64,000 nt of DNA, taken from NCBI GenBank assembly GCA_012295275.1, contig CM022672.1, positions 20,646,001 to 20,710,000 on the forward strand, in the 5' to 3' direction. Position numbers and translations under genes: made by a program. Each line of letters opens with the position of its first letter. The stretch's first letter is position 1. The notes under the pieces were generated by a model. That model made no database searches, had not been told where the DNA came from, and was given only the letters and a program-made list of their open reading frames with translations. The stretch is from Chrysomallon squamiferum (taxonomy: Eukaryota > Animalia > Mollusca). Below are positions 18,113-63,505 of this stretch, one piece after another.

Positions 18113-21100
18113 TTACTTCTGATAGTAATAAAAATCATCTGATGAAGGTCGCAAACCAAATGTAGCCTCAAATCTGTTAGCCAGAGATGTAAATGTTGGC
18201 CTGTCATTTGGGTTTCCTGACCAGCATTCTTGCATCATTTTGTGGTGTCTGTGAATAAGAAAAAATCTTGATAGGACTACCAAAAATAATATTTCTCATA
18301 ACAAGTTAAAAGAAGAAATAGGGTAAATGGAAAAAACAATCTAATTAATACTGAATGAATTAAACATTGTCCATTTAATCACTCATTTATTTGAATAAAA
18401 CTAAATGGGAAGATAATTTAATAATAGAAAATACACTCAGGCAGCTATGCACATTACTTTTTGACCTGGTTTATTGTATATTTAATTAATAATATAGCAA
18501 GTTTTGTGGATACAGCCATTGCTTTCACCATCTTAGAAATAATCAGTTTTTAAGCATATTCTCATAATTATTGTTGAAAAAATACTTTACTGCTGAAAAT
18601 GTCTATTTATATAAATAGTATTTATTTTTTATTTTTTTGGTTTTATTTATTTTGATAAATAATATTTATATGTGGTCATTACTTCTATTCACTGATATTA
18701 GTGTGACAGATTTTCTTTCTTTCTTAATTACTTTGGTGGTATTGTAATGCTGTATTATGGCAAAGATATCTGGACTTCAAATATGTCAGCTAGAATGAAA
18801 GAAAATCTTGTTCATTTTAATTTTAAAATTAAACATTTCCAATTTCCAAAATGGTAATATGCTTATTTCTATTACACAATATTTTATATTGATATTTAGT
18901 GTGTTTTTTGTACATGTAATTAATAATATAGTTTTATAAAATATACTTACATATCCTCACAGAATTCAGGTCGGCTAAGTCGGTATCCACTTTTCAGTTT
19001 ATGTGCAATATCACGACTTCGAATGTTGGCATAGGGAACTTGTCCTGTTAAATTTCAGAATGTATCATTGCGAAACAACAAAAGTTAGAACAAAATGACG
19101 AATTAATAAATATCAAAAGAAAGTAATAAATAAGCAATAGTTATTTTCAGCATTTGATAATTTTCCATCTTATCTCATTACTACAAAGAGTTGATATCTA
19201 TTTTCAATTATATGTAAAATTCAAATAATAATGTCAGATCACAAAACAAAAACTGACATTTAAAAGTTATTTGATCCAAATAATGAACAGTTCAATGAAG
19301 AATTTTACACCACTAGCCGAAGCTGCTTACATGTTTATATATTGGACTTATAAATTTATAAACTGCAATTAAAGTAAAGACTAACCAAGACTAAATATTT
19401 CCCAAAGAACGATGCCATAAGACCACACATCACTCTTTTCATTGGCGTTCTTCAGCGTTTGTAGACATTCCGGAGCAGTCCACTTGACAGGAATACGATC
19501 CTGAAACAAAGTTATAAAACAACATGCAAATTAGTGTGAAATTTAAAAAAGAAAGTGTTTATATATATAAAAATTACTATATTATTTACACTAAAAGATG
19601 TCACTAAACATGGAAATTATTTACTGTGAATGTTAAAAAGGAAATTATGTTTTAAAATATATATTAAAAAATAATTCCATTTAGGAAACAAATATTTCTG
19701 TTAACTGATTTAGAAATCATATCCACTTCATATCATCTTCAGCTTCTTATCACTTGATGTGTAATTCTACACTAAGAGATGTTAAATCTTATTACTCCTT
19801 TTAAATTGTCATCATCTTCTCTGTCTCCACGTTGAGGTCCAAATCCAGTAACTTTAGCTTGAAGAATGAACGTCAGGAGGACATTTCTTGCTGCCAGTTT
19901 CCTGTGTACAATCTACATAATGCACAGTAACAGCAAATCAACTTCATATTTCTAAAATATTCTGACAGTATGATCTACACCCTGTTCACTCCCATTTTAA
20001 AAAACGTTAGTCAAAAATAGCTCAATAAAAAAAAAAAAAAAAAAAAAAAATTTTGGTAATGGATGGACCAAAGATTAATTCAGTCTGATAAGATGTTTTA
20101 GTTTTGCAGTATATGATAGGAAAATACCAAAGTAAATGATTGTATTTATTATGAAAGTGAGAATACAGAAATCTGGCTTAAAGATATGGAGTTTGGAATT
20201 CAGTTTCGAATTGAGTTCATGATATCACACACACACACACACAACTGAATAAAATAATTAATAAACACATGTAAATAAAACATTAAGAAATAGAAACTAT
20301 TTTTGTGTGCTAAAAATAAACATATTTATACTGAAGATGGAATAGCATTTTAGTTCAAAATCATTGTTTTACTACTAAACTGTTTTGTCTTTCAAATCAT
20401 TAAAATAAGGTAGATGTGAACAAACATTTCTTGAGGCCAGGTATGACATAGCCTGAGCAATCTCCATAGCAATTCTCTGAATCTTCTCAATTGTATCATC
20501 TGTAGATTGTCCTTGCTGTTTGATTAGCCACTGGTCAAGCTGACCAGACTCGCAGTATTCAACAACCATTATAGGACCCACTGTAAATAGAAACAGAACA
20601 TTTCAAGTTTGTCGATTTAACTATATAATGTGTTACTGTGCATATTTAGCTATGTAATGTGTTACTGTATGCATTTAACTGTATAATGTATTACTGTATG
20701 TATTTAGCTATGTAATGTGTTACTGTATGCATTTAACTGTATAATGTGTTACTGTATGTATTTATCTATGTTGTATGTTACGGTATGTATTTAACTATAT
20801 AATGTGTTACTGTATGTATTTAGCTATGTAATGTGTTACTGTATGTATTTAGCTATATAATGTGTTAATGTATGTATGTATCTATGTAATGTGTTACTGT
20901 ATGTATTTAGCTATATAATGTGTTACTGTATGTATTTAGCTATGTAATGTGTTACTGTATGTATTTAACTATATAATGTGTTACTGTATGTATTTAGCTA
21001 TGTAATGTGTTACTGTATGTATTTAACTATATAATATGTTAATGTATGTATGTATCTATATAATATGCTACTGTGTGTATTTAACTATATAATGTGTTAC

Positions 21101-62800: not shown

Positions 62801-63505
62801 GTTGTTGCTATATTTTCATGTATGCTTTCGTAAAATTTACGAATAAAATTTCTTATATGATATAATTTCGTTTATTTCTTTTAATTTGAACAGAAATACT
62901 AACTAATCAGAAGTTCCTATTCAGCTGTGCTTGTTAACGTCAGATTATGTCAGTAAGAAACAAACTTACGAACGGTGCAGCTAGTTGAATCCCACCTCGT
63001 TCTCTTCCAGCCCATGCAACAGTAAGGTTCATATCTGTACCGTATCGTCCAGGCATATGTAGAGGAACAGCAGCTGAAACAAAACATATAATTTAGCTAA
63101 CATAGGTAATGTCTAACAAATCGAAAAATTAGTCTTAAGCATATAATAAAAAAAAATAAATAAAAAAAAAATAATTGTAATTTAGGAATATAATCTTCAG
63201 ATTATAGCTAGTTTATAGATTTTATTTGCTCTCTCTCTCTCTCTCTCTCTCTCTCTCTCTCTCTCTCTCTCTCTCTCTCTCTCTCTCTCTCTCTCTCTCT
63301 TTATCTCTTTATTTTTTTAAATTATTATATTTTCAGTAAAACTCTCATCCTTAAGAAACAAATTTAATTGCGAATTTACATTTAAAGTTTTTAGAAACTC
63401 TAAAAATAAATAAAAAAAGAAAAGAAAAGTACTTACATAAACCAGAAGCTGAAAGTACATACGCGTACTCGTTCATAATAACGCACTCTTCGATGACACA
63501 CATGT
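50877..63505 (-). CDS. Receptor tyrosine pseudokinase copy B, exons 2-22; carries a donor-site deletion and a +2 frameshift (possibly disabled or kinase-less)
   Basis: Exons: 63437-63505, 62970-63073, 62314-62409, 61803-61916, 60672-60962, 60014-60167, 59477-59696, 58313-59139, 57887-58004, 57250-57450, 56833-56869, 56033-56299, remnant ~55395-55414, 54832-55010, 54134-54334, 53787-53906, 52787-52941, 52278-52394, 51887-52001, 51419-51512, 50877-51012. Lengths equal copy A except exon 11 (+6), 14 (truncated), 15 (+1) and 16 (+2). Exon 1 lies outside the window. Confidence 0.82.
52975..53610. repeat. 29-bp minisatellite in kinase intron (copy B)
   Basis: Seen: same unit as 20615-21330 with a different variant order. 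Confidence 0.95.

Follow-up and report, generated by a model that had tools for sequence, protein, structure and literature searches.

The 64,000-nucleotide stretch of Chrysomallon squamiferum contig CM022672.1 analysed here (assembly GCA_012295275.1, positions 20,646,001 to 20,710,000 of the forward strand; hereafter the window) contains several copies of a gene for a receptor with a kinase-like cytoplasmic part. The reading that we favour, with reasonable rather than high confidence, is that they form a tandem cluster of a single-pass receptor gene (two young duplicates, copies A and B, an old relic, C, and an inverted first-exon relic), that the dead-kinase tail of the receptor likely serves a partner kinase as a scaffold for phosphotyrosine docking, and that both copies are predicted to be disabled.

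The window is AT-rich (23–38% G+C) and eukaryotic, and its genes are split into small exons. The best protein matches for its translated pieces come from the vent snail Gigantopelta aegis, with 72–77% identity across the largest exon. A homology search returned 54 proteins at E ≤ 1e-3, 53 of them with names, and every named match is a mollusc. Self-BLAST reveals a tandem segmental duplication (~13039–31900 versus 47443–63550) with 85–90% identity in introns and exons alike, as exemplified by 24660–28097 and 56387–59790 (86.3% over 3496 columns). About 5 kb of downstream flank is duplicated along with each unit. Gene models were built by aligning six mollusc homologues to both units with a purpose-written protein-to-genome spliced aligner. 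Copies A and B have an identical exon chain on the minus strand, with GT–AG borders and checked phases. Copy A covers 18116–37875 in 22 exons, on the evidence of spliced alignments, phases, GT–AG borders, and RNA joints. Copy B (50880–63505) starts at the acceptor of exon 2 (63505) and comprises exons 2–22 in the spliced alignment; from comparison with A, its exon 1 is expected ~1.6 kb past the end of the window. Relic C also lies on the minus strand, and the inverted exon 1 relic on the plus strand. The first-pass annotation had described two near-complete 22-exon copies; the exon chains are present as stated, but both copies carry frame-breaking lesions that it had missed. The locus is a compact case of gene birth and death, as that annotation had proposed: it combines a young duplicate pair with an old relic, an inverted exon 1, fresh lesions, and persisting transcription.

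The kinase-like domain is dead by sequence in every relative examined. Pfam PK_Tyr_Ser-Thr matches six of six full-length homologues (E 1e-50 to 4e-71), as well as exon pieces of A, B, and C. Active-site residues were counted in an alignment of 54 sequences, with the residues present at each column as denominators. The HRD aspartate is absent from all 43 (K in 13, R in 30), and the DFG aspartate is glycine in 42 of 42 and aspartate in none. The αC glutamate is replaced by lysine in 43 of 44, and the first and third glycines of the Gly-loop are replaced as well. The β3 lysine (43 of 45), the catalytic-loop asparagine (43 of 43), and the APE glutamate (41 of 42) are retained. Further motif-fitting representatives, 21 in number, have no aspartate at the HRD or DFG position; the corresponding motifs are HRK...SFA or SFS in three hemichordate sequences and HGS...GFE in one from a scallop. 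In copies A and B the motifs are HRK...GFG (VTGFGP context), and in relic C they are HKK...GFG. The earlier description of the receptor as a pseudokinase is borne out by the loss of both aspartates in all aligned homologues. Because these aspartates are absent from every relative examined, the receptor is likely to be a docking scaffold and not an enzyme.

No kinase class stands out among the matches to the domain. Sequence matches in the PDB are FGFR1–3, VEGFR1, KIT, and a Src/Abl ancestor, at ~145–150 bits and 31–34% identity, with FGFR constructs filling the list. Foldseek with an AlphaFold (AF2) model (mean predicted local distance difference test score, pLDDT, 81) finds FGFR1 at E 1e-21 and 33% identity, and an Atlas feature search gave JAK2, Cad96Ca, and MET clusters, with no coherent class.

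Conserved tyrosines flank the kinase-like domain. The juxtamembrane motif D-D-I-Y-x-Y-G-x-M, just before strand β1, is well kept (Y in 42 of 45, Y in 41 of 45, G in 37 of 44, and M in 36 of 44) and contains YxxM, which we take to be the SH2-binding motif of PI3K p85. The C-terminal tail carries DDxYYY[KR], with its tyrosines present in 27 of 39, 35 of 40, and 34 of 42 sequences. In the scheme that we propose, a ligand or partner receptor would bind the conserved middle module or the fast-changing head of the ectodomain, and contact through the invariant middle module would leave the head free to vary. An associated active tyrosine kinase would then phosphorylate both motifs, and the flanking phosphotyrosines may recruit SH2 proteins, as in HER3 or PTK7.

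Lesions that break the reading frame are predicted to disable both copies. Copy A, compared with copy B and with the G. aegis proteins, has a 1-nucleotide deletion in exon 15 near 22825 (22820–22830, minus strand). The frame meets a TGA ~30 codons past the membrane segment, and the kinase exons beyond the deletion are open in their own frame to the normal stop. The product of copy A would be at most a membrane-anchored ectodomain without the tail, resembling kinase-less forms annotated in other molluscs. In copy B, exon 14 is reduced to its first 19 nucleotides (55414–55396; lesion at 55340–55414, minus strand): duplicated intron sequence stands where the membrane helix should begin and where the donor site should be, with ~40 nucleotides replaced. 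In addition, an insertion of 2 nucleotides in exon 16 of B near 54195 (54188–54200, minus strand) shifts the frame, as seen from two tblastn frames. All three lesions lie outside homopolymers. The 384-nucleotide bin 22508–22891 is spanned by DNA contigs from two studies (X1 and X2) with no indel listed, which agrees with the deletion in A while being no proof at the exact base.

In the adjacent interval 21740–22507, which holds exon 16 of A and simple repeats, DNA contigs at 98% likeness almost vanish (depth 5–9 in X1 and 0–0.6 in X2); the flanks have contig depths of 100–400 (X1) and 10–30 (X2). Polymorphism, repeats, or filtering may each cause this gap.

Copies A and B have been under purifying selection for most of the time since their duplication, as indicated by a low ratio of non-synonymous to synonymous divergence (dN/dS) together with near-equal numbers of derived residues. 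The ectodomain (826 codons) has a synonymous divergence (dS) of 0.10 and a dN/dS of 0.43, and the cytoplasmic part (337 codons) has a dS of 0.078 and a dN/dS of 0.20. Eight introns differ by 5–17%. With G. aegis paralogues as the outgroup, 22 residues are derived in A, 24 in B, and 37 are ambiguous. Since both copies have been under purifying selection for most of their life, the lesions are recent. Along the ectodomain, dN/dS is 1.35 in codons 1–60 (16 non-synonymous versus 3 synonymous changes), 1.04 in codons 30–90 (12 versus 3), ~1.3 in codons 600–660, and 0.0–0.3 in the middle, all from small counts.

RNA of the family is present and correctly spliced, in part from a B-type copy. Nine sequencing runs contain part of A, two of which are RNA libraries of the same organism labelled metatranscriptomic. 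RNA and DNA contigs were compared with A at 98% likeness; such contigs cannot give expression levels or tissues, and parts of A without RNA contigs are uninformative on expression. In the two RNA runs, spliced joints 27421^27775 and 19500^19796 fall at predicted exon borders, with CT..AC ends on the plus strand. RNA carries the letters of B at 19447 and 28441, and one RNA contig departs from A at 27919 and continues with 26 nucleotides identical to exon 8 of B (59622–59647). Spliced RNA of the family speaks against the silence of all copies, which the first-pass annotation had named as fatal to its proposal. An RNA contig of run X8 has C at 27384 (exon 9 of A), where both copies have G; this may be an allele or a further paralogue outside the window.

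The protein is ordered as signal peptide, Cys-rich CCxGW head, two EGF repeats, a rod of about six FN3/Ig-like β-sandwich domains, FN3, membrane helix, juxtamembrane segment, and kinase-like fold. On window pieces and six homologues, Pfam finds EGF_2 or EGF_TEN, fn3 (E 1.6e-5 on exon 13 of copy B), and PK_Tyr_Ser-Thr; the ~620 residues between EGF and FN3 have no Pfam match. Pfam EMI is unmatched in three of three N-termini even at E ≤ 10, with HMMER filters dropping weak matches. The CCxGW motif and the EGF repeat that follows match the N-terminus of fibrillin-1 (YCCPGW) at E 1.2e-12, residues 21–68 of SCARF1 at E 1.7e-4, and EGF repeats of WIF-1 and HHIP. The segment ahead of CCxGW is ~40 residues long, shorter than the EMI domain, which we take to have ~75 residues and 7 Cys and to end in CCxGW. 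The head is best called EMI-like, formal EMI membership being left aside. Of the architecture first described, the signal peptide, both EGF repeats, FN3, transmembrane segment, and protein tyrosine kinase fold stand; for EMI, the CCxGW-plus-EGF signature was recovered.

AF2 models were made for G. aegis P0001, from 54 aligned sequences, and for the ectodomain of the G. aegis paralogue P0005, with mean pLDDT of 81 and 83.9, respectively. The ectodomain is all-β, and helices are modelled at residues 3–21 and 867–887 of P0005 and 756–780 of P0001. The topology is that of a type I membrane protein, with a signal exon, an ectodomain, and one membrane helix. In VIA, a single FN3 aligns with residues 767–862 of P0005 (Z 14.6, root-mean-square deviation 2.3, 94 residues), and multi-FN3 or Ig arrays align over residues 347–860. 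Foldseek on the ectodomain gives gp130, OSMR, LEPR, and fibronectin arrays as the best matches (500–800 columns, E 1e-13, 8–12% identity). FN3 largely fills the VIA list, and with the full-length model the Foldseek list is taken up by kinase matches. In the models, the Pfam-blank part of the ectodomain is a rod of β-sandwich domains, on a basis that covers P0005 residues from ~345 on; the fold search suggested earlier returns an FN3/Ig-like array for the ~600 residues first left unassigned.

The middle of the ectodomain is its most conserved part. The 54-sequence alignment has 17 invariant columns, and every one falls within or immediately behind the 276-residue, two-domain β-sandwich module encoded by exon 9 (26595–27421 in A). 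Comparison of peltospirid paralogues by domain shows the lowest identity in the head (52%, from only three pairs) and the highest in the exon 9 module and FN3 (78%). The annotated picture of a dead-kinase scaffold under a variable tip is not supported in that form; the variable tip itself gains weak support, from the head dN/dS on 16 versus 3 changes and the lowest identity on three pairs.

With exon 9 as query, an Atlas search gave unnamed mollusc clusters and leads to fn3/Ig-like domains, and nothing else. A full HMMER scan for the 276-residue module retrieves 365 representatives at E ≤ 1e-3, of which 61 reach E ≤ 1e-30. Among 22 of the 150 listed representatives scanned with Pfam are five kinase-like proteins, one adhesion GPCR (GPS plus 7tm_2), one PLAT protein, one TSP1 protein, and several giant FN3 proteins. 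Name look-ups for 20 representatives place kinase-bearing members in the annelid Owenia fusiformis, the hemichordates Ptychodera flava and Glandiceps talaboti, and many molluscs; the module occurs in other architectures in Patiria, Saccoglossus, Branchiostoma, Lingula, and Haliotis. No Pfam family covers this ectodomain module, which is mobile: it was observed in a starfish adhesion GPCR, an abalone PLAT protein, a TSP1 protein of Saccoglossus, and giant FN3 proteins of amphioxus with more than 3000 residues (P0163, P0188, P0109, and P0107).

The Owenia protein has a VWA domain in front, and its alignment with an abalone member is colinear all the way from EGF2 through the YY tail (30% over 1159 columns, E 3e-125); the Ptychodera protein is colinear as well (23% over 1158 columns, E 1e-58). 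Both aspartates are missing in Owenia (HKK...GFG) and Ptychodera (HRK...SFA). If the Owenia and hemichordate proteins are orthologues, the dead kinase would predate the protostome/deuterostome split; convergence is also possible. The family is older and wider than first proposed, and its colinear relatives in Owenia, Ptychodera, and Glandiceps overturn the idea of an invention within the mollusc lineage.

A quick maximum-likelihood tree (56 sequences, 1220 columns, LG+G4, support from SH-aLRT only, with a long-branch warning for six rows) places A and B as sisters (support 100) within a clade holding five G. aegis genes (100). Haliotis, Mercenaria, Mya, and Saccostrea (free of Saccoglossus) each fall in their own groups. 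Paralogues thus cluster by lineage, in line with the lineage-specific expansion and the birth-and-death course that had been suggested. Some annotated relatives have no kinase part (P0005, P0013, P0016, P0027, P0030, and P0044), and P0035 ends shortly past the membrane helix; members ending before or just past this helix occur in G. aegis, Haliotis, Saccostrea, Sinanodonta, and Mercenaria. Such relatives are possibly real isoforms, pseudogenes, or partial gene models.

Source names for the relatives are inconsistent (uncharacterized, FGFR, FGFR2, FGFR2-like, ephrin receptor-like, and FER-like). Searches in the open-access full-text literature yielded no description of the family or of a receptor tyrosine kinase (RTK) class with this ectodomain, in accordance with the earlier remark that the combination is not among the named RTK classes. 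The passages seen of the G. aegis genome paper do not mention the family (PMC7895826), and in the part seen of an oyster kinome paper, five 'TK-unique' kinases appear without detail (PMC4883820). As judged from sequence, this is an unnamed family of receptor pseudokinases, set apart from HER3, PTK7, RYK, ROR, EphA10, and EphB6 by its ectodomain and its active-site pattern; source names do not place it in these classes. Taken as a whole, the interpretation of the first-pass annotation survives in part: the dead kinase, the lineage expansion, and the lack of a described class are supported, the variable tip is weakly supported, and an origin within the mollusc lineage and intact copies are not.

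Several points weigh against the favoured reading. The lesions in A and B rest on one assembly, and a cryptic donor just before the premature stop of A, together with a 34-nucleotide cryptic exon, could restore the frame on paper, although no result points to such splicing. The RNA contigs are short, have little depth, and are B-like at three discriminating sites, B being the more damaged copy; transcription may therefore come from a B-like allele or from a different paralogue. The YxxM lies only ~12 residues before strand β1 and may be structural instead of a docking site. The β3 lysine and the catalytic asparagine are retained in the kinase-like domain, and some kinases without the canonical residues still bind ATP or transfer phosphate. 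Finally, the partner kinase and the ligand are putative, and the scaffold role is inferred.

The most serious competitor, in our estimate about a one-in-several prospect, is that the lesions reflect errors of assembly or are confined to the haplotype that was sequenced, so that at least one of the window copies encodes a full-length receptor in the population. The kinase exons of A and B are otherwise open and show the low dN/dS given above, the numbers of derived changes are similar, family transcripts are correctly spliced with one piece specific to B, and the near absence of DNA contigs over exon 16 of A (21740–22507) could mean that the locus is polymorphic there. However, none of the three lesions lies in a homopolymer, the loss of exon 14 in B is a replacement of ~40 nucleotides and not a single-base error, and contigs of two studies cover the bin of the A deletion with no indel reported. 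We give almost no credence to a related artefact, in which A and B are uncollapsed haplotypes of one locus that the assembler placed in tandem. Their shared exon structure and similar unit lengths fit it, and no other result does. Introns that are 5–17% divergent, a dS of 0.08–0.10, different lesions, a 6-nucleotide exon indel, a 4-kb insertion in A only, the ~5 kb of downstream flank duplicated with each unit, and the presence of relic C and inverted segments between A and B on the same contig all speak for two loci.

An atypical but active kinase that uses other catalytic residues, which would make the receptor a true RTK, is highly improbable. The β3 lysine, the catalytic-loop asparagine, and the APE glutamate are conserved, and the replacements HR[K/R] and GFG are themselves conserved, which points to a selected function of the pocket; but the metal- and base-providing aspartates are absent from all sequences examined, the αC glutamate is a lysine, and two of the three Gly-loop glycines are replaced. 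To our knowledge, no tyrosine kinase is active with this combination of residues. We regard as unlikely, if less so, that the family is a variable set of recognition receptors for microbes, symbionts, or self/non-self, with a head under positive selection and the dead kinase as no more than an anchor for signalling. The lineage-wise clustering of paralogues, with adjacent LOC numbers on single chromosomes in G. aegis, Haliotis, Mya, Mercenaria, and Crassostrea, the contrast in dN/dS between head (1.35 and 1.04) and mid-ectodomain, the low conservation of the head among peltospirid paralogues, the match of the CCxGW-plus-EGF segment to the N-terminus of the scavenger receptor SCARF1, and transcripts from libraries labelled metatranscriptomic are consistent with such a role. 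On the other hand, there are only 2–6 proteins per species among the matches listed, too few to compare with diversified immune families as they are known; the dN/dS ratios that exceed 1 come from 16 versus 3 and 12 versus 3 changes and would equally fit relaxed constraint in decaying copies; the 52% head identity comes from three pairs; and both copies in the window are broken. Colinear conservation from molluscs to hemichordates and the invariant central module accord better with a ligand or partner that is itself conserved. A role in immunity or symbiosis is possible, from small counts and analogy. A bolder version, which we likewise doubt, would make the family a bilaterian-old unnamed class with a CED-1/SCARF-like head, a gp130-like rod, and an HER3-like dead-kinase tail, a recognition receptor for microbes, symbionts, or cell corpses, expanded in tandem in one lineage after another while its head changes fast, in which repeated truncation, as in copy A, yields kinase-less decoys. 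The docking scaffold remains the reading that we prefer.

Known receptors resemble the family in part. Like the human receptor pseudokinases HER3/ErbB3, PTK7/CCK4, RYK, ROR, EphA10, and EphB6, its members are single-pass proteins with a tyrosine-kinase fold that lacks catalytic residues, are under purifying selection, and carry flanking tyrosines; HER3 also offers a likeness in YxxM to the juxtamembrane motif. However, the ectodomains of these receptors are unrelated (Ig, WIF, Fz, or ephrin-binding), and the combination of HR[K/R], GFG, and αC lysine is the family's own. FGFR is the nearest solved kinase domain (~148 bits, Foldseek E 1e-21, TM to target 0.8–0.89), and some databases use FGFR or FGFR2 labels. 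FGFRs have Ig-like domains with an acid box and an active, split-free kinase with HRD and DFG. Yet the identity is only 31–34%, VEGFR1, KIT, and the Src/Abl ancestor score about equally, Pfam scans of six homologues found no Ig domains or acid box, and the catalytic aspartates are absent. Tie1 and Tie2, in which an Ig-EGFx3-Ig-FN3x3 ectodomain precedes an active kinase, share EGF repeats and FN3 before a kinase fold, and FN3 1–3 of Tie2 align to model residues 466–860 with Z 12.5, but this is one of hundreds of generic FN3-array matches. The family has no Pfam Ig, another head, and a dead kinase, and Tie is absent from the best kinase matches shown. Despite the 'ephrin receptor-like' names, the N-terminal ephrin-binding and C-terminal SAM domains that mark the Eph class are absent from the Pfam scans of six homologues.

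CED-1, Draper, MEGF10, SCARF1, and PEAR1 share a Cys-rich CCxGW segment followed by EGF repeats, and EGF_PEAR1L is precomputed for 7 of the 54 matches; unlike them, the family has only two EGF repeats in gastropods, no Pfam EMI match, a long β-sandwich rod, and a kinase-like domain. The tall cytokine receptors gp130, LEPR, and OSMR and the FN3 arrays of fibronectin are the best fold matches to the whole ectodomain model, but at 8–12% identity the shared feature is a strung β-sandwich architecture, with no evidence of common function or descent.

The exons of both copies, all on the minus strand, are as follows. Exon 1 of A (37875–37808), coding for the signal peptide + G, was located by a search for ATG, a hydrophobic stretch, and a phase-2 donor. 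It is followed by GTAAGT, and its end resembles the G. aegis signal peptide (...CYGWSG). Another candidate for exon 1, at 32094–32015, was dropped in favour of 37875–37808, whose end, GWS+G, matches relatives. The Cys-rich CCxGW head is encoded by exons 2 (A 31851–31783; B 63505–63437) and 3 (A 31435–31332; B 63073–62970), EGF1 by exon 4 (A 30378–30283; B 62409–62314), and EGF2 by exon 5 (A 29951–29838; B 61916–61803). Then come exons 6 (A 29208–28918; B 60962–60672), 7 (A 28548–28395; B 60167–60014), and 8 (A 27994–27775; B 59696–59477), and exon 9 with the two-domain module (A 27421–26595; B 59139–58313). Exons 10 (A 26287–26170; B 58004–57887), 11 (A 25744–25550; B 57450–57250), and 12 (A 25142–25106; B 56869–56833) lead to exon 13, which encodes FN3 (A 24497–24231; B 56299–56033).

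Exon 14 (A 23444–23388; B, the stump 55414–55396) is followed by exon 15 with the transmembrane and juxtamembrane segments (A 22915–22738; B 55010–54832). The kinase-like domain is encoded by exons 16 (strands β1–β3; A 22069–21871; B 54334–54134), 17 (A 21642–21523; B 53906–53787), 18 (A 20580–20426; B 52941–52787), 19 (A 19912–19796; B 52394–52278), 20 (A 19500–19386; B 52001–51887), 21 (A 19044–18951; B 51512–51419), and 22 (A 18248–18116, stop TAA; B 51012–50880). Micro-exons of 11–67 nucleotides that the aligner placed between exons 15 and 16 were rejected, as B and the G. aegis proteins join exon 15 straight to exon 16. A and B differ by a 6-nucleotide exon indel.

Intron 1 of A holds an insertion of ~4 kb (31900–36057, plus strand) that is not in B (63550–63801). 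It contains multi-frame open reading frames (33229–35500), three of which were tested and had no Pfam match, and probably represents a mobile element that has decayed. Both copies show a self-match ladder between exons 17 and 18, which marks an intronic tandem array of a ~58-nucleotide unit (20615–21500 and 52977–53770). In intron 12 of A, one DNA contig (X2) and one contig of an RNA library (X9) join 24862 back to 24569 with three extra letters, which may be a structural variant or an intron repeat.

Relic C (44407–46205, minus strand) is the old deleted copy that had been reported, an older and internally deleted unit of which five exon remnants are left at 46205–44407: half of exon 13 (46205–46062), exon 17 (45926–45798), exon 19 with HKKLAARN...GFG (45302–45183), exon 20 (45028–44906), and exon 21 (44454–44407). 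They have 53–83% protein identity and 66–80% DNA identity. The reported inverted 5' relic is found as well. On the plus strand, ~38436–38545 aligns to exon 1 of A as a degenerate copy of the 5' leader, ATG, and signal peptide, head to head with that exon, with a stop at codon 3 and indels. A protein-level search for it gave nothing on the plus strand at E < 1; it emerged after exon 1 was located.

A large inverted repeat relates 36065–38220, the arm that surrounds exon 1 of A, to 44046–42398, the arm that abuts relic C. The latter (42398–44046, plus strand) is an inverted copy of the non-coding region flanking exon 1 of A, with 70–86% identity in pieces, and may be the former 5' region of relic C; the arrangement suggests an inversion while relic C decayed. 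Repeats at 36057–36219, 43871–44046, and 63801–63984 are non-coding. Elsewhere in the window, a two-exon homeobox gene lies on the minus strand at 592–912 and 1298–1528 (Pfam Homeodomain, E 2e-13 on the first piece); its homeodomain presumably resembles those of the Vax/Emx/Not group.

HER3, PTK7, RYK, ROR, and other receptor pseudokinases form a small set that has been studied intensively, and they show that dead kinases can signal. The family described here adds receptor pseudokinases with an ectodomain of their own, a strict pattern of active-site replacement, and a range of molluscs, an annelid, and hemichordates. Naming it would correct the annotation of many invertebrate genomes, in which members are now uncharacterized or mislabelled as FGFR or Eph. 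The class would extend the evolution of RTKs, and vertebrates and model ecdysozoans may lack it. The family is a test case for the retention of HR[K/R] and GFG over hundreds of millions of years.

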